From Dehalococcoidia bacterium (GTDB lineage: Bacteria > Chloroflexota > Dehalococcoidia > Bin125), in contig OZ244908.1 of NCBI GenBank assembly GCA_965221705.1, forward strand, positions 283,064-347,063: a stretch of DNA of 64,000 nt. Direction: 5' to 3'. Within the stretch, counting starts at the first letter, position 1, and every line of letters begins with the position of its first letter. The notes below the pieces were generated by a model. The model made no database searches, was not told where the DNA came from, and was given only the letters and a program-made list of their open reading frames with translations. The translations under genes were made by a program, and so were the position numbers. This document shows positions 3,790-40,067 of this stretch, one piece after another.

Positions 3790-5754
3790 CTAGCTCGCTG
3801 CGGCGGCGGCCTCGGCCTGCTGCCGCACTTGCTGCGCGACGTGCTCGGGCACCTGGTCGTAGCGCTCGAACTGCCAGCTGAAGGTGCCTCGACCGCCGGT
3901 CATCGAGCGCAGGTCCGTGGCGTAGTGCAGAAACTCCGCCATCGGACCTTCGGCGATCACAACCGACGCGCCAGGCGGTTCGTCCGCCGGCTCCATGCCC
4001 AACACCCGCGCGCGGCGCGAGTTGAGGTCGCTGATGATGTCGCCGGTCGACGATTCAGGCGCCGTGATCCGCAGCGAGTGCACCGGTTCGAGCAAAATCG
4101 GCCGCGCCGATGACACGCTCTCCTTGAGCGCCTGCGAGGCAGCCAGCTTGAAGGCCATCTCTGACGAATCGACATCGTGGTGCTTGCCGTCGTAGAGCGT
4201 CACGCGCAGGTCGGTGAGCGGGAACGCGCCGCGTGGCAGCGATTCGACGACGCCCTTCTCCACCGCCGGAATGTAGTTGCGCGGCACCGCGCCGCCGACG
4301 ATTTCGTCCTGGAACTCGAACCCGGCGCCGCGCGGTTGCGGCTCAACGCGCAGCGCGACGCGAGCGTACTGTCCGCTGCCGCCGGTCTGTTTCTTGTGCA
4401 GATACTCGGCCTGGCCGACGCTCGTGACCGTCTCGCGGTACGGGACGCGTCGATCCTTGATGTCGACCTCGACGTGGAACTTGCTCGCCAAACGACCAGC
4501 CGAGAGCTGCACGTGCGACTCGCTGAGACCGCTCAGGATCGTCTCGCCCGAGTCGCGGTCACGCTCGATCTGCAGCGTCGGATCGCTCTCAACCAGTCGC
4601 GCCAACGACGGCCCGAGCTTGTCGACATCGGCCTTGGTCTTGGGCTCGACGGCGGCTGCGAAGATTGGCGCTGGCATCGGCGGCTCGGGAACGAGCAGCG
4701 ACGATCCCTTGGCGCGCAGCGTGTTGAACGTCGTCGTGTGCTGCAGCTTGGTCACGACGCCGATATCGCCGACGCCCAACTCGCTGACGGCGGTCAGCGC
4801 CTTGCCGCTGGCGCGCGACAGGTTCGCCAGGCGTTCGTCCTCGCCCGTTTGGGCGTTGTCGAGGTGATCGTCGGAGTTGATCGCGCCTGACACGACGCGC
4901 AGATACGAGAGTCGACCGACGAACTCGTCGGCTGTGGTCTTGAACACGAACGCGCCGGCCTGGCCGTCGTCTTCGATGCCCTCGGCGATCGGCGGCGCCT
5001 CCGAAGGACTGGGCAGTACGTCGTTGATCAGGCGCAGCAGCTCGTCCGAGCCGACGCCCGCGGTCGCCGAGACCGGCAGCGCCGGCGCCAACGATCCAGC
5101 CAGCACCGCGGATTTCAGCGCGGCACGCAGGTCGTCCTCCTCGATCGCTTCGTCTTCCAGGTAGAGCATCATCAGGTCTTCGTCTGACTCGACGATCCGC
5201 TCGATTAGTCCATCGCGACCCTCGGCATCGGCGTCGCCGAGCACATCGACGAGCTCCGAGAACTCGGCCTCAGCGGCGTTCGGCAGGTACAGCGGCTGAC
5301 ACTCGGAACCGAGAATCGACTGCACCGACGCCAGCGCGTCATCGAACGACGAGTTCTCGCGGTCGAGTCGTGAGATCGCCACCGCGCGGGGAATGCCGCG
5401 CTTGCCCGCCATGCGCCAGACCGTCTCGGTGCCGACCTGCACGCCCGAGGAGGCGTCGACGACGACGATCACGGCATCGACGACGGCGACTGAGGCGACG
5501 ACCTCGCCGACAAAGTCGGCGTAGCCGGGGGTGTCGAGCAGGTTAAATCGCACGCCGTCGTGCTCGAGCGAGACGAGTGACGTCGAGATTGACATACCGC
5601 GCTGTTGTTCTTCGGCGTCGTGGTCTGAGATCGTGTTGCCTTCTTCGACGCGTCCCAGTCGCGTCGCCGCGCCGGTCGCCAAAGCCAGCGCCTCGACCAG
5701 CGTCGTCTTGCCCGATCCCTGGTGCCCAACCACGCCCACATTACGAACAGCCAT
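3790..5754 (-). CDS. Elongation factor G paralog (translational GTPase)
   Basis: G1 GHQGSGKTT, G3 DTPGYADF, plus EF-G domains II-V. At 654 aa it is shorter than canonical FusA. Confidence 0.85.
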   Translation of the reverse strand: MAVRNVGVVGHQGSGKTTLVEALALATGAATRLGRVEEGNTISDHDAEEQQRGMSISTSLVSLEHDGVRFNLLDTPGYADFVGEVVASVAVVDAVIVVVDASSGVQVGTETVWRMAGKRGIPRAVAISRLDRENSSFDDALASVQSILGSECQPLYLPNAAEAEFSELVDVLGDADAEGRDGLIERIVESDEDLMMLYLEDEAIEEDDLRAALKSAVLAGSLAPALPVSATAGVGSDELLRLINDVLPSPSEAPPIAEGIEDDGQAGAFVFKTTADEFVGRLSYLRVVSGAINSDDHLDNAQTGEDERLANLSRASGKALTAVSELGVGDIGVVTKLQHTTTFNTLRAKGSSLLVPEPPMPAPIFAAAVEPKTKADVDKLGPSLARLVESDPTLQIERDRDSGETILSGLSESHVQLSAGRLASKFHVEVDIKDRRVPYRETVTSVGQAEYLHKKQTGGSGQYARVALRVEPQPRGAGFEFQDEIVGGAVPRNYIPAVEKGVVESLPRGAFPLTDLRVTLYDGKHHDVDSSEMAFKLAASQALKESVSSARPILLEPVHSLRITAPESSTGDIISDLNSRRARVLGMEPADEPPGASVVIAEGPMAEFLHYATDLRSMTGGRGTFSWQFERYDQVPEHVAQQVRQQAEAAAAAS

Positions 5755-34600: not shown

Positions 34601-34728
34601 GCTTCCAGGCCTTGCAGCGTGAGGCTGCCCCCCCCCGCCCCTGCGGGCCGCCTCCCCGGAGGCGAGGTCTTGTCCCTATCCCCCGTTCCCTGCAGGGAGC
34701 AAGCGGGAGGGACCCTCTGATCCCCTCT

Positions 34729-35360: not shown

Positions 35361-35666
35361 ATGGCGCTCAGAATCGACAAACTCCGATTTCGCAATCTAC
35401 TGGTCCGCGGCAACGTACTGGACGCGCCTGCGACTGAGTTCGCCGATGCCTTAGACGATACGTTCCGCGAGCAGCTGGAGGGTGTCGCGACTGAGAGATC
35501 CGTAGACGCAGCCGTCAGCCGCGCGGTCGCCGAACTGAAGGCTGACGCGGCAGAGCGAGAGGCGCGAGTCTCTCGACAGCAGCAGCTCATCGTCGGACTC
35601 GTGATGGGCGGCATGCTCACGCTGATTGGTTTCGCCATCGCGATCCTGCTCGCCGTGTTGCTCTAG
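35361..35666 (+). CDS. Small protein with a C-terminal transmembrane helix
   Basis: ATG start 39 bp after the zinc-ribbon gene. The C-terminus is LIVGLVMGGMLTLIGFAIAILLAVLL. Confidence 0.4.
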   Translation: MALRIDKLRFRNLLVRGNVLDAPATEFADALDDTFREQLEGVATERSVDAAVSRAVAELKADAAEREARVSRQQQLIVGLVMGGMLTLIGFAIAILLAVLL

Positions 35667-35726
35667 TCTTCCCGCCTATCCTGCTCCAATCGCTCCCCCA
35701 CCGGGTGAGCTATCGACCTGATCCCA

Positions 35727-35768
35727 AAAGGCCCCCTCCGGGGAGCTGTCACGGAGTGACTGAGGGGG
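35727..35768. repeat. Family 2 repeat, copy 2
   Basis: ccccctccggggagctgtcacggagtgactgagggggc, the direct repeat of 34557-34600. Confidence 0.75.
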
Positions 35769-35794
35769 CGCCCCGACACGAACCTCGACGCGCG

Positions 35795-36388
35795 TCAATC
35801 CACGGACGCTTGTTCAGACTCCCGCCACACCACGTGACCATTGATGTTGTGACGCTCGTACGTCAACAACACGTCCCGAATGAATGCGCAGAGCTGTTGA
35901 TCTCCCGTTTCCGAGGCGACTTCGTACAGACGAATGAACATCTTCTTGCCCGTCTCAGTCTGACCCAGGTTTTTCTTTCGGTTGTTGTGCATGGCGCACA
36001 GCGTTTGACCATTCGAGACGATTGCCCGTCCTCCCTTGTCCTTGGGCTTGATGTGATCGACGTGCAGTTCGACCCCTTCTTCCCTCGATGCGCCACACAC
36101 CACACACTTGTATCCGTCGCGCTGTAAGACCTCCTGGCGGTTCGCAGTGGAGAAGTCCTCAAGCATGCGTGTTACTTCCAGGCCCGGATCATACTGGTAC
36201 ACGCCCTTCGCCAGCTTCTGAAGCTTGCCTTCTTGATGCAACTTACGAATCGCGCGGTCGGGATCTCGAAACACCTTGCCAGTACGACGCTGCCACTCCC
36301 TCGTCGCCCAATCGACAACCTCGGCGTGCGGAATCGGTCGATTCGGCCGATCTCGGTAGTAGCTGAAGATTAGGTCCGACTGGGACAT
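35795..36388 (-). CDS. HNH endonuclease (candidate restriction endonuclease of R-M system 1)
   Basis: HNH motif CVVCG…LHVDHIKPK…N…CAMHN. Its ATG overlaps the stop of the upstream MTase (TGATG). Confidence 0.65.
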   Translation of the reverse strand: MSQSDLIFSYYRDRPNRPIPHAEVVDWATREWQRRTGKVFRDPDRAIRKLHQEGKLQKLAKGVYQYDPGLEVTRMLEDFSTANRQEVLQRDGYKCVVCGASREEGVELHVDHIKPKDKGGRAIVSNGQTLCAMHNNRKKNLGQTETGKKMFIRLYEVASETGDQQLCAFIRDVLLTYERHNINGHVVWRESEQASVD

Positions 36389-37377
36389 CAGAATCGCTGC
36401 ACTTCGGCGTTGATGCGGTCGAGCGCCAGCTCGCGGTACGACTGATCGATCTCGATGCCGTACGCACGGCGTCCATTCCGCAGCGCCGCGACCAGGGTGC
36501 TGCCGCTGCCCGCGAACGGGTCCAGCACCCGGTCGCCTCGATACGAGAACAACCTGATGCAGCGGCGCGGCAGCTCGAGCGGAAACGGCGCCGGATGACC
36601 AATCCGCTTCGCCGACTCTCCGCCGAATGTCCAGATCTGCGACGCCCACTCTCGCGCCGCTTCAGGGTCCAGCCCGTCAAGCCCCGGGCCTCGCGGGCGC
36701 GTCAGCAGCTCCGCAAACGACTCGCGCAGCTCGTCAACGCGCAGCGGCGAGGCGCCGTCGAACGACATCGCCCAAGCCAACAACTGCGTCGGAGCGATCA
36801 GCGGCTCTGGCGGCGTCGCGGTATCGTTCTCGGCCGGTTGATCCTGGTGCTCGCTCCACACCCCCGAGGTCCACTCCATGAACTCGTCGCGCTCGATCGT
36901 GACCCGCTCGTCGCCCAGGTGCTCGCGATTCCACTGCTCCTTGTAGAGCACGACGATCGTCTCGACCGGCGCAATCACGTGCGGCGCCGACGGCCGCATC
37001 CAGCTGCCCCACGCCGTGCGCCGCGAGATGTTGCCCTCGTTCCAGATGATCGTCGCGTGATACCGCCAACCGACCTCGCGCGCGATGTTGGTCAGGTCGG
37101 CCGTCACGGCCTGCTTGCCGCCGCTGTTCTTGTCCAGCGGGATGTTCATGCAGAGCCGACCGCGCGGCGCCGTCCAGCGGAAGCAGTTGGCCAGCCACTT
37201 ACGGCTGAACTCCAGATAGGCCTCGTACGAGCCGGCGTCATCGACGCCGTCGCCGTAGCTCAGGCCGACGTTGTACGGCGGCGACGTGACGGTCAGCTGG
37301 AAGCAGTCGTCGTCGAACAGCGACGGGTCAGTCGCGTCGCCCAGCCGCAGCTGCTCGGGGTTGAAGAGGGCGGTCAC
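36388..37377 (-). CDS. DNA methyltransferase, beta-class N6-adenine/N4-cytosine (motif IV SPPY before motif I)
   Basis: TSPPY (motif IV) near the N-terminus and DPFAGSGST (motif I) near the C-terminus. GTG start at 37377. Confidence 0.8.
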   Translation of the reverse strand: MTALFNPEQLRLGDATDPSLFDDDCFQLTVTSPPYNVGLSYGDGVDDAGSYEAYLEFSRKWLANCFRWTAPRGRLCMNIPLDKNSGGKQAVTADLTNIAREVGWRYHATIIWNEGNISRRTAWGSWMRPSAPHVIAPVETIVVLYKEQWNREHLGDERVTIERDEFMEWTSGVWSEHQDQPAENDTATPPEPLIAPTQLLAWAMSFDGASPLRVDELRESFAELLTRPRGPGLDGLDPEAAREWASQIWTFGGESAKRIGHPAPFPLELPRRCIRLFSYRGDRVLDPFAGSGSTLVAALRNGRRAYGIEIDQSYRELALDRINAEVQRF

Positions 37378-37421
37378 CGCGCCGCCCCTGTGCAGCTTCG
37401 GTCACAACGCCGGACAGATGT

Positions 37422-37443
37422 GGGGGGGGGGGGGGGGGGGGGG
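37422..37443. repeat. Homopolymeric poly-G tract (22 nt) in the divergent region between the MTase-1 start and the PD-(D/E)xK nuclease start
   Basis: G run 37422-37443. About 45 nt upstream of the MTase-1 GTG (as poly-C on that strand) and about 117 nt upstream of the nuclease ATG. Confidence 0.9.
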
Positions 37444-37559
37444 TGACAGATAAGTGTTCGGGCTCACGCCGGCCGGTATAGGCCACCGGTCAGTACCCGG
37501 CAAGCCGGCGTCGACACACCGGGGTTGACAGCGCCGAACCCGGCCTGTATCCGGTTTCT

Positions 37560-38690
37560 ATGCCTCCTTCAAAGCTGCTCGATCAGGCTAAAGAGGATCT
37601 GCTGGTCCAGCTCTATCTGGACTGGGGCGGCGGTTTTCCCGACGACCACATGGCCGACATCATCAAGGAGTTTGTCGCCTCGTTCCCAGATCTCAATGTC
37701 CAGCAGCAGAACTCGCTCTGGGGCCGAGCCTTCCAAAAGCTGATGGAGCTGCTCTTCGAGGACCGGGTGAAGGCGCTCAACGCCGCGCATGGACTCTCGT
37801 TGCGTTGGACACGCGACACCGAGCTAGGTCGGCAGCAACCTGGCGAGCAACTGGAGCGCGTCAAGCGCAACTTGCTCGTCGACTACGGCGAGTACGGTTG
37901 TCACCTGCCCGACGCCGACTTCGTCGTCTACCGCGAGGAGAATCACGCCATTGTCTGCGTCCTCTCCTGCAAGACTTCGCTGCGCGACCGTATGAAGCAG
38001 ACGGCGTACTGGAAACTGAAGCTATTGCAGAGTCCGATCACGACGCACGTTCGTTACTGTCTGCTGACTCTGGATAAAGACGGCGACCTTGTTTCCGACC
38101 AACCGCCGTACAAGAAGAACTACGCAATCGCCAACATCGACTTCGATGCAACGTACGTCCTGCGCGATGACTTAACGCCCAACGATCGCATCAAGGGCTT
38201 TAGCAGCTTCGAAAACGACGTACTGTCATGGTTGGGGGGGGGGGGGGGGGGTGAGCGATCACCTCTCCCGGCAAGCGCTCAGACTTGCCGAACAGTATCA
38301 ACGGGCGCTCGATGCCCGCAAGACGCTCCGAGCGTACAAACGCGGCGCGCACCTCTTCGGCGATCCCGACACCGCCTACGACAACGCGACCAAGGACCTG
38401 GCCGATATCCGCCAACGCATGCGCACGCTGGAGCGCCAGCTCAACGACGCCGCCGGCATCGAGCTCAAGCCGGACATCGAAGCGACCACGTTGTGGGACT
38501 TCCCCACGCAGTCGTACGGTTCGACGCCCAAGGGCGACAGCCGCTATCAGGGCGTGACGCCGGCGTTCATCATCTACAACATGCTGCAGCGCTACACCGA
38601 ACCCGGCGATCTGGTGCTCGATCCGATGTGCGGCTCTGGCACCACGATCGATGTCTGCCGCGAAGAACAGCGTCAAGCAATCGGATATGA
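37560..38690 (+). CDS. Putative type II restriction endonuclease (PD-(D/E)xK-like). The real C-terminus is probably near 38250. The ORF as sequenced has no stop before the poly-G and reads out of frame into the MTase-2 gene.
   Basis: LPDADFVVY…VLSCK candidate PD…(S/E)xK catalytic region. GC is ~58%, below the ~68% background. The ORF continues through a GGGGGG-encoding poly-G into +1-frame nonsense overlapping MTase-2. Confidence 0.45.
   Translation: MPPSKLLDQAKEDLLVQLYLDWGGGFPDDHMADIIKEFVASFPDLNVQQQNSLWGRAFQKLMELLFEDRVKALNAAHGLSLRWTRDTELGRQQPGEQLERVKRNLLVDYGEYGCHLPDADFVVYREENHAIVCVLSCKTSLRDRMKQTAYWKLKLLQSPITTHVRYCLLTLDKDGDLVSDQPPYKKNYAIANIDFDATYVLRDDLTPNDRIKGFSSFENDVLSWLGGGGGGERSPLPASAQTCRTVSTGARCPQDAPSVQTRRAPLRRSRHRLRQRDQGPGRYPPTHAHAGAPAQRRRRHRAQAGHRSDHVVGLPHAVVRFDAQGRQPLSGRDAGVHHLQHAAALHRTRRSGARSDVRLWHHDRCLPRRTASSNRI
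38234..38251. repeat. Homopolymeric poly-G tract (18 nt) at the nuclease/MTase-2 junction
   Basis: G run 38234-38251. The MTase-2 GTG start begins at the last G. One extra G (19) would create a TGA stop for the nuclease gene, overlapping the GTG (GTGA). Confidence 0.9.
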
Positions 38691-39240
38691 CATCAACCCG
38701 GTCCGCGACGACATCGAACAGAATGACGCGCGATCGATTCCGCTCGACGACGCGAGCGTCGACATGGTCTTCATCGACTCGCCCTACGGCGACAACGTTA
38801 ACTACAACGACCAGCCGGCCAACATCGGACGACACTCAGCAGAGCAGCACGAGTTCTACGACGCGCTGCGACTGGTAGCGAGCGAGCTGTTCCGCGTGCT
38901 CAAGACGGGCAAGACGCTCGGCTGGTTGATCGGCGATCAATGGGTCAAGAAACGCTACACGCCAGTCGGGATGCAGATCTACCAGATGCTCGTCGATGAC
39001 ATCGGCTTCATCCCCACCGAATGGGTGATCGTCGCTCGGCGCAATCAGTCGTCGAACACCGGACTCTGGGCATATCGCGCGCGCAAACACAACTTCTACC
39101 TGCGCGGACACAAGCACCTGATCATCGTGCGCAAGCCCGAGCGTCGCGTTGTCGAAGTGGCCTCAGAGCGCGTTGTGCAGGTCGGCGTCGACCAGTTCAC
39201 CCGCGACCCTGCGGCTCGCGATTGGAAGAAGTACAAGTAA
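38251..39240 (+). CDS. DNA methyltransferase (N6-adenine/N4-cytosine). Motif I is LDPMCGSGTT and motif IV DSPYG.
   Basis: FxGxG-type SAM-binding motif followed by DSPY (D/S-PP-Y variant). The roughly 100-aa N-terminal region is helical. Confidence 0.75.
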   Translation: MSDHLSRQALRLAEQYQRALDARKTLRAYKRGAHLFGDPDTAYDNATKDLADIRQRMRTLERQLNDAAGIELKPDIEATTLWDFPTQSYGSTPKGDSRYQGVTPAFIIYNMLQRYTEPGDLVLDPMCGSGTTIDVCREEQRQAIGYDINPVRDDIEQNDARSIPLDDASVDMVFIDSPYGDNVNYNDQPANIGRHSAEQHEFYDALRLVASELFRVLKTGKTLGWLIGDQWVKKRYTPVGMQIYQMLVDDIGFIPTEWVIVARRNQSSNTGLWAYRARKHNFYLRGHKHLIIVRKPERRVVEVASERVVQVGVDQFTRDPAARDWKKYK

Positions 39241-39242
39241 GT

Positions 39243-40067
39243 TTAGCCGCCGGACTCGAGCGCGCCGACGATTTGCATCCTCCCGGTCTCGCCCGCGAGG
39301 TCGTCAACGTAGTGATAGCGCCTGCCAGCCGCCTCTACATAACAGGGCGCTGACATCCGACCCGAGCGATTGACGCGTCGGTCGACGCTGAACGTTGGCC
39401 GCGCCTGGTCCTCGCCCAGCTGCTCCGCGGCCAACGCCGCCGGATGCCCGCCCTCGACGCACCAGCGCGCGAAGTCCCCTGGATACTCGAACCAATCGCC
39501 CCGCGAGGCGTCGGCGAACTCCTGCATCGCTCCGAGTATCGGCCAGAGCGCCGCTGCGTCGAGCGGAACGTCGCTGAGACGCAACGCGACATTGGGCAAG
39601 TGCGCCGCGACCGCGTCGAAGAACTTGTCGGGATCCTCCAACGAAACGGGATCGAGATCAGACCATCGCGGCGCGGCGTCGCCCGCTCGATCGAGCAGCT
39701 CGCGTTCGAGCGCAAAGGCTCGCGCCCGAGCGGCGCGGATCGCGTCGACGCTGGGCGGCGGTTCGTCAGGCGGCGGCTCACGCGTCGCGCGCTGTTCGGC
39801 GAGCTCCGCCTCAAGCTGGGCGATTCGCTCCGCCTGCTCCGGATCGGCGACGACCACCTCTTCAACGACGCGCTCGACCTCCCGTTCAGACTTTGGGCGC
39901 TCAGGCTCGGGCGCGTGAGTCGGACTGGGAGTCGCCGACGTTCGCTCTCCCGATGTCCGCCGTTCAAGCCAGAGCACCGCCGCCACCGCACCGCCGACGA
40001 ACGCCAGCAGTGTCTGCAGCAGCTTCACCGATCGCCTCCGCGCACGCCCTCGAGCCAGGTCAGACAC
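39243..40067 (-). CDS. Hypothetical membrane-anchored protein with a coiled-coil region
   Basis: N-terminal TM (LLQTLLAFVGGAVAAVLWL), an E/R-rich coiled coil, and a conserved-looking C-terminal domain. No assignable family. Confidence 0.4.
   Translation of the reverse strand: MSDLARGRARRRSVKLLQTLLAFVGGAVAAVLWLERRTSGERTSATPSPTHAPEPERPKSEREVERVVEEVVVADPEQAERIAQLEAELAEQRATREPPPDEPPPSVDAIRAARARAFALERELLDRAGDAAPRWSDLDPVSLEDPDKFFDAVAAHLPNVALRLSDVPLDAAALWPILGAMQEFADASRGDWFEYPGDFARWCVEGGHPAALAAEQLGEDQARPTFSVDRRVNRSGRMSAPCYVEAAGRRYHYVDDLAGETGRMQIVGALESGG

Follow-up and report, generated by a model that had tools for sequence, protein, structure and literature searches.

Gene content of the island

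In a 64,000-nucleotide (nt) stretch of Dehalococcoidia DNA (hereafter the window, in whose positions all coordinates are given), the block 35795–39240 holds an island made up of two Type II restriction-modification (R-M) gene pairs, one on each strand, in agreement with the two divergent R-M systems claimed in a preliminary description of this DNA. Two pure homopolymers stand within it, at exactly the coordinates and lengths reported there: tract A (37422–37443; G22 on the plus strand, C22 on the sense strand of the methyltransferase gene M1), 45 nt upstream of the M1 GTG, and tract B (38234–38251, plus strand; G18), which lies at the junction of the nuclease gene R2 and the methyltransferase gene M2, encodes a poly-Gly tail on R2, and provides with its last G the first base of the M2 GTG. 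They are the only runs of at least 10 nt in the whole 64 kb, and a G run of 18 nt or more is calculated to occur about 1e-4 times per 64 kb at the composition of the window. We conclude that both tracts are genuine, lineage-conserved, selected and slippage-prone simple-sequence repeats, and we favour, with modest confidence as to function, a reading in which tract B sets where R2 translation ends relative to the M2 start while tract A tunes the M1 leader.

The minus-strand pair consists of M1 (36388–37377), a beta-class N6/N4 methyltransferase gene with a GTG start (PF01555, E = 3.1e-41; PADLOC MTase_II, E = 6e-82), whose product has SPPY towards the N-terminus and DPFAGSGST towards the C-terminus, and an HNH nuclease gene (35795–36388; 197 aa) encoding a winged-helix-like N-terminal region and an HNH domain (PF01844, E = 8.7e-9), with weak PADLOC REase_II matches. 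The HNH ATG shares one base with the M1 stop (TGATG), and the overlap proposed between the two genes is thereby borne out at position 36388. On the plus strand, the R2 nuclease core (37560–38233; 225 aa; BsaWI/CCGG-family PD-(D/E)xK; PF18643, E = 3.7e-27) is followed by M2 (38251–39240), an N6/N4 methyltransferase gene with a GTG start (PF01555, E = 2e-24; PADLOC MTase_II) and the motif order DPMCGSGT, then DSPY. Both methyltransferases carry motifs I and IV, and each of their genes adjoins a nuclease gene. The island had also been described as a low-GC block; this holds for HNH (0.55–0.57) and for the R2/M2 region (0.58–0.64), but not for M1, which at 0.68 is like the flanks. An Rfam scan of 35600–39400 gave zero matches.

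Outside the island, a C9 run lies at 34628–34636, intergenic between the NMO-like gene and the 175-aa gene (see below); related loci have no run of 9 nt or more there.

Reading frames at the R2/M2 junction

As assembled, with G18, the R2 open reading frame (ORF) has no stop at the junction and continues to 38690 (376 aa). In silico, G19 gives GGG-TGA, overlapping the M2 GTG (GTGA), and G17 fuses the R2 and M2 ORFs; frame analysis thus confirms all three frame statements made earlier for 17, 18 and 19 Gs. The switch between R+M+, fusion and R-null states that had been derived from them stands as regards its three junction outcomes, but a simple R-null state is not a product of frameshifting here, because tract B lies at the 3′ end of R2 and no register truncates the nuclease. 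In an AlphaFold model the poly-Gly tail of R2 comes after the last helix and is disordered (predicted local distance difference test, pLDDT, <50).

Conservation of tract B

A scan of one genome per species found 14 close loci, all in metagenome-assembled genomes (MAGs) of Dehalococcoidia, and 66 more distant loci in other phyla; six further loci were obtained via exact protein look-up, giving 20 related loci in total (named L001–L014 and L161–L166; L007 and L014 lie on MEGAHIT-named contigs, and L164–L166 are Logan contigs). All 20 related loci have a pure G run of 10–25 nt (median 16) orthologous to tract B, 0–13 nt before the M2 start, with lengths, beginning with the window, of 18, 21, 17, 10, 19, 16, 16, 16, 22, 14, 15, 25, at least 15, 13, 16, 16, 24, 17, 14, 12, and 12 nt. 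None of the 66 more distant loci of other phyla has a G run at the R2 end. The proteins show the same pattern: the closest 24 R2 homologues (38–62% identity) all have a run of 3–9 glycines at the end of the R2 domain, after which they either stop directly or read through into out-of-frame sequence, and the run is absent in more distant R2 homologues.

Long G runs are a known artefact of two-colour chemistry, and the preliminary description had accordingly offered a poly-G artefact marking a mis-join as one of its explanations. However, the sequence to either side of the tracts is in both cases collinear with that of orthologous loci from many other genomes, and the tracts themselves recur in many independent assemblies made with different assemblers, MEGAHIT and Logan contigs included. 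The same tracts at orthologous positions, in independent assemblies of different species, exclude an artefact or a chimeric join, to which we assign practically no probability.

Exact-sequence look-ups of M2, M1, the 376-aa ORF, and the neighbouring phosphoribosyltransferase gave no match; a metagenome scan returned distant relatives only (at most 42% identity), without tracts, and a viral scan gave zero matches. In some low-GC relatives (L055, L060, and similar loci), the M2 start is overlapped by an A-rich run (GGAAAAAAATAAAAAAG) at the end of the R gene; this could be chance due to base composition, or a distant counterpart of the G run.

Stops, registers and the M2 start

Right after the run, most relatives have a stop codon that abuts or overlaps the M2 start, as TAG-GTG, TAA-GTG, TAA-ATG, or GTGA. 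Among the 20 readable junctions (the window and 19 relatives), 10 are in the stop register and seven, including the window, in a run-on register, while three (L009, L013, and L014) have a design without an adjacent stop, L014 encoding an in-frame R2-M2 fusion. Since all three registers occur among relatives, an R2 without an adjacent stop is a common and normal state in this family. Selection against fusion, considered as a reason for the scarcity of R2-M2 fusions, was rejected: the TAG-GTG stop lies in the M2 frame, which makes fusion impossible at such junctions, and L014 does fuse.

With G18 the window lacks one base relative to the canonical stop register (G19), perhaps as a real variant, perhaps through a consensus error. 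In the latter case only the exact length would be wrong; the true tract would be G19 (or G16, or G22), R2 would end GGG-TGA over the M2 GTG, and the missing stop would be a one-base consensus error. We regard this as quite plausible, if somewhat short of probable, and it is compatible with a register switch as well as with a structural role of the tract. G19 would restore the arrangement of L004 (G19) and L005 (G16), which have the same TGAGC junction; the stop register is found in 10 of the 17 relatives with the adjacent-stop junction design; and the run-on register is the stop register minus one base, the commonest homopolymer error. Against such an error, relatives are often in a run-on register, the Logan contigs L165 and L166 (G12) among them, and the registers within one species group (6:4:4, see below) are unlike a −1 bias.

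The N-terminus of M2 is conserved from the first residue across 12 loci. It begins with a clade-specific extension of about 70 aa, and homologues of other phyla align only from residue ~70–76. The extension (38251–38470, residues 1–~73) is helix-rich, and where R2 runs on, its tail is encoded over the same stretch in a different frame; homologues of other phyla are without it, and their genes start at or overlap the R stop.

Length variation between strains

Close relatives differ in tract B length. Within one sample, L162 has G24 (stop register, 112x) and L163 has G17 (run-on, 18x), with 97.5% nucleotide identity over 6.7 kb. Within one species (98.5–99% identity), three Logan contigs have G14, G12, and G12 and a complete MAG has G10, so that all three registers are represented. 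In one species group, 14 distinct R2 proteins with cores 97% identical carry 4–8 glycines and divide into six in the stop register, four in one run-on register, and four in the other. As in a contingency locus, the repeat is conserved in position and differs in length between close strains, part of which may be assembly error; the 7-nt differences, together with the differences among Logan contigs, argue for real polymorphism. Tract A and tract B lengths show no correlation across loci.

Conservation of the register within 90% clusters was considered as a sign of frame selection and rejected, since clusters 1 and 2 have 97% identical cores, are split by their tails, and give 6:4:4 when pooled. 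Several contigs end in or beside the tracts: L012 ends inside tract B (5706–5720), L165 and L166 start just after tract A, and in L164 the place concerned is positions 8–19. Such breaks are consistent with length heterogeneity within the sample or with a drop in coverage at long G runs.

The tolerance of all DNA registers would also be expected if slippage were programmed, with RNA polymerase, or ribosomes on the 5–8 GGG codons, producing a mix of R2, extended R2, and R2-M2 fusion in each cell at any DNA length. The tracts are longer than the RNA-DNA hybrid (~9 bp), and the in-frame fusion encoded by L014 fits as well. Documented slippage, however, is mainly on A/T runs, and the non-coding tract A would be left unexplained, which makes this explanation decidedly improbable.

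Predicted structure around the M2 start

In the predicted RNA fold of the window, the 3′ part of tract B pairs with a segment in M2 codons 4–7 (38262–38269, plus strand; CCTCTCCC), with the stop and start codons enclosed between them. Minimum free energy (MFE) folds of 16 of the 18 junctions have the same arrangement, in which tract B pairs with a CCUCUCCC-like C/U-rich stretch 7–19 nt downstream and the start codon is enclosed. Summed over 15 loci, tract pairing amounts to 115, compared with 70 ± 17 in shuffles and above all 100 of them; no locus reaches significance by itself, and the loci are relatives of one another. Both G18 and G22 also have the sequence of a potential G-quadruplex (G4), with at least four runs of three G in a homopolymer of at least 15 G.

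These features bear on the main alternative to a register switch, namely that the tracts are constitutive cis-regulatory structures whose length variation is noise tolerated above a minimum. The G run would then be a Shine-Dalgarno-like hairpin arm, or an RNA or DNA G4, that would hide the M2 start and restrict M2 synthesis to times when R2 is translated; M1-HNH would be attenuated by the C run, whose template strand carries G. Besides the pairing that encloses the start codon, most tract B copies are at least 15 nt long, enough for an intramolecular G4, and every register is tolerated. The alternative also fits the unusual length of the tracts, which are far longer than typical contingency tracts (9–10 nt in Campylobacter; PMC6321876). 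On the other hand, the pairing is not significant for any one locus, and the summed value comes from phylogenetically related loci; L007 and L014 are without such pairing; several tracts are shorter than 15 nt (tract B of 10–14 nt; tract A of 9–14 nt in seven of 12 loci); a hairpin or Shine-Dalgarno element needs no pure homopolymer; and the poly-C has no consistent partner in cis in the M1 leader. On this basis we consider a purely structural role possible but unlikely.

Tract A and the M1 leader

The orthologue of tract A is a C run in the M1 sense, 42–46 nt before the M1 start in most loci and further away in L005 and L014. Its lengths are 22, 9, 15, 13, 16, 20, 11, 9, 11, 24, 14, and 12 nt. 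It is kept in the loci with permuted gene order (L006, L010, and L013, see below), including L013, which is without HNH. Between tract A and the M1 start lies a 26-nt leader motif (37395–37420, minus strand; CATCTGTCCGGYGTTGTRRCCGAAGC; no Rfam match), present in one copy per locus and always directly 3′ of the poly-C in the M1 sense. In L014, an insertion of ~130 nt of G-rich repeats (GGGACTGGG-like units) is found in the M1 leader (1476–1630), between the leader motif and the M1 start.

Upstream of tract A in the M1 sense, the element CCGGCTTGCCGGG-N-CCGG-N5-TATACCGG is conserved in 11 loci and is the putative M1 promoter (37475–37503, minus strand), with a −35 TTGCCG at 37503–37498, a 17-nt spacer, and a −10 TATACC at 37480–37475. 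The distance from this −10 to tract A varies from 35 to 90 nt across loci, which places tract A in the leader and not in the promoter. The 22-nt tract is thus not in a shared divergent promoter, where it had been located at first; it lies downstream of the promoter-like element of M1 and follows M1 in the permuted loci.

Masking of the M1 Shine-Dalgarno by the poly-C in cis was considered but is not supported, as leader folds leave the tract mostly unpaired and without a consistent partner. An unpaired C run could in principle anneal in trans to the G run at the M2 start, coupling the two systems, and in all 11 loci with both modules the runs are indeed G in the R2-M2 sense and C in the M1 sense, in both gene orders. 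These loci, however, are one lineage, so that the co-occurrence counts as a single observation, and the lengths of the two tracts are uncorrelated. A species group that has neither M1-HNH nor tract A at this locus has retained a tract B of 16–24 nt; this persistence without the M1 module speaks against a C:G RNA duplex in trans, which we hold to be very unlikely indeed.

R2 as a CCGG-family nuclease and the CCGG-rich putative promoters

R2 is, by sequence and predicted fold, a PD-(D/E)xK restriction endonuclease of the CCGG family, which upholds the nuclease assignment made for the 225-aa ORF and answers whether that ORF has homologues among nuclease families. It matches Pfam RE_BsaWI with 94.9 bits (cut-off 26.2), and its AlphaFold model (pLDDT 91.7) has as top restriction-enzyme matches in Foldseek BsaWI (4zsf, E = 5e-6), PfoI (E = 9e-5), SgrAI, and Kpn2I. 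Kinship with BsaWI needed this fold comparison: phmmer with R2 gave zero matches in the PDB, and an R2-family profile reached BsaWI only with E = 0.87. Residues P117-D118, K138, and R142-D143-R144 are invariant among 57 family sequences, and across 15 loci R2 keeps its catalytic and recognition residues and has no internal stops.

The likeness to BsaWI (W/CCGGW) and to the CCGG family in general (NgoMIV, Cfr10I, SgrAI, PfoI, Kpn2I) lies in the predicted fold, which resembles 4zsf, 6ek1, 7s8d, and 6ekr, in the PD...K with a continuous R-D-R four residues past the lysine, an instance of the R-(D/E)-R motif by which CCGG is recognised, and in the adjoining N6/N4 methyltransferase. The K-x3-RDR spacing is the same as in BsaWI, where K165 is followed by R169-D170-R171 (PMC4652773). 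R2 differs from BsaWI in that sequence identity is only ~13% and the position of D175 is a conserved Thr. Furthermore, CCGG-family members of other phyla are without the 3′ homopolymer, the leaderless promoter, and the CCGG-studded promoters seen here.

The putative R2 promoter (37525–37553, plus strand) has a −35 TTGACA at 37525–37530, a 17-nt spacer, and a −10 TATCCG at 37548–37553, with the ATG 6 nt further on. Of 15 loci, 14 have retained the arrangement TTGACA-N17-TATCCGG(T/G)T-N3-ATG, and from this conservation we infer a leaderless R2-M2 mRNA that begins at the R2 ATG.

The 182-nt intergenic region (37378–37559) has nine CCGG sites, where the mean is 0.95 per 182 nt, and no other part of the window has them so densely clustered. 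A conserved CCGG stands at equivalent places of both putative promoters: beside the −35, in the middle of the spacer, and inside the −10 (TATCCGG and TATACCGG). Promoters studded with CCGG in this way suggest, on their sequence, control by methylation or by protein binding of the CCGG-family system. None of the NCCGGN flank variants is depleted in the window.

Synteny and gene order

The proteins of the island are conserved in relatives: M1 is 65–80% identical to that of the window (11 Dehalococcoidia loci), M2 63–83% (12 loci, from residue 1), HNH 62–69% (L001–L006, L010), and R2 41–62%. The housekeeping neighbours are common to about 10 genomes, with the NMO-like gene at 87–95%, the phosphoribosyltransferase at 88–92%, and the 2-hydroxyacid dehydrogenase at 70–75%; the 175-aa gene (~80%) and the poorly conserved gene X are shared as well. 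The same neighbours in about 10 loci indicate a resident locus and not a recent acquisition, and by this synteny the island is chromosomal and vertically inherited. Gene X (39243–40067, minus strand) flanks the island in all syntenic loci; its conservation is ~50–60%, compared with 88–92% for neighbours, and it has no PADLOC match (Pfam was not searched).

Two gene orders occur, which are circular permutations of one another. HNH-M1 lies to the left of R2-M2 in the window and in L001–L005, L007, and L014, and between M2 and gene X in L006 and L010, with a similar order in L013, which lacks HNH; in moving, HNH-M1 takes its promoter and tract A along. In one species group (L161–L163), R2-M2 occupies the same chromosomal site, and the M1-HNH module and tract A are missing from it. 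The HNH-M1 module therefore behaves as a movable cassette inside a syntenic locus.

Proposed function and comparison with known systems

In the reading that we favour, the tracts are conserved hypermutable elements acting on two operons. On the minus strand, transcription would run from the promoter through the leader with its poly-C to M1 and the HNH nuclease gene, the poly-C tuning the expression of both. On the plus strand, a leaderless mRNA would start at the R2 ATG, and the poly-G end of R2 would abut the M2 start codon, where the length of tract B modulo 3 would decide among three endings. In the first, the R2 stop touches or overlaps the M2 start, which would give tight coupling of termination and reinitiation and leave a short poly-Gly tail on R2; in the second, translation of R2 would continue across the M2 initiation region, so that ribosomes pass over the M2 start and R2 is lengthened at its C-terminus by tens to ~150 aa; the third, an R2-M2 fusion, would be possible only at GTGA-type junctions such as that of the window. 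In addition, the G run may be Shine-Dalgarno-like and form the 5′ arm of a hairpin at the M2 start. A population would thereby be heterogeneous in its balance of restriction and modification.

Several observations weigh against this reading. The nuclease domain is kept in every register, owing to the 3′ position of tract B, and the finding that all registers occur at similar frequency within species could equally mean that the register is irrelevant. L009, L013, and L014 have junction types without an adjacent stop. Many of the relatives are, judging by their names only, long-read assemblies, in which homopolymer length is unreliable, so part of the scatter in length and frame may be technical. 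A strict scan for sigma-70 promoters and terminators in 37300–37640 found nothing, and the M1 and R2 promoters both fail it, which leaves conservation as the ground for calling them. Finally, the tracts are much longer than the mostly 9–10 nt that are enough for phase variation in Campylobacter (PMC6321876), a hint at a length-dependent structural role.

Some aspects of the island have parallels elsewhere. Translationally coupled operons have overlapping or adjacent stop and start codons and a sequestered downstream initiation site, and here the TAG-GTG, TAA-GTG, TAA-ATG, and GTGA junctions and the predicted hairpin that encloses the M2 start are alike. What differs is the 5′ arm, which is a hypervariable homopolymer and at the same time determines the upstream ORF's register, and the window, which is not assembled in the stop register. 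In the poly-C stretch of Bordetella fim, a promoter homopolymer tunes transcription; like tract A, it is a long, length-variable C run upstream of a gene, but the distance of tract A to the start codon is fixed, and the tract lies downstream of the promoter-like element and not in the spacer between −35 and −10.

Phase-variable R-M systems have been described mainly among Type I, Type III, and Type IIG systems of host-adapted pathogens (PMC6789123, PMC6321876). With these systems (the hsdS poly-G of Neisseria NgoAV, Type III mod genes, and the poly-G of the Type IIG Campylobacter cj0031) the island shares a pure G/C run at R-M genes, length polymorphism between close strains, and, here in silico, a consequence for the reading frame (PMC6789123, PMC6321876). 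Their tracts, however, are 5′ or internal to the coding sequence, truncate the protein, and are mostly 9–10 nt long, as are most phase-variation tracts in Campylobacter (PMC6321876). Here, in contrast, the genes form two-gene Type II systems in free-living Dehalococcoidia, the runs are 10–25 nt at a stop/start junction and in a 5′ leader, and the nuclease is never truncated.

A more far-reaching reading combines several of these elements. The junction G run would be a new control element of an R-first leaderless Type II operon. Slippage of polymerase, ribosome or both on 10–25 G would leave each cell with R2, C-terminally extended R2, and R2-M2 fusion side by side, and a hairpin or quadruplex of the G run at the M2 start would allow M2 synthesis only in the wake of a ribosome translating R2; the two effects jointly would set the R:M ratio. 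For the complementary C run in the neighbouring M1-HNH leader, the principle would be the same, or else it would anneal to the G run in trans. The whole would be a lineage-wide, vertically inherited design in free-living Chloroflexota instead of an on/off switch of the pathogen type. Taken as a whole we find this reading improbable.

Significance

Clade-wide in uncultured Dehalococcoidia, a classical Type II system and a second R-M pair keep two very long G/C runs at fixed positions, and one of these conserved runs falls exactly on the junction between nuclease stop and methylase start. No description of such an arrangement was found in the literature searched. For the annotation of metagenomes there is a practical lesson: assembled long poly-G need not be artefactual, and a nuclease gene that looks "frameshifted" at a tract of this kind should not be called a pseudogene. 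If the tracts do switch or tune the R:M balance, stochastic heterogeneity in defence and epigenetic state would extend to slow-growing, free-living bacteria, and would do so through an unusual control point.

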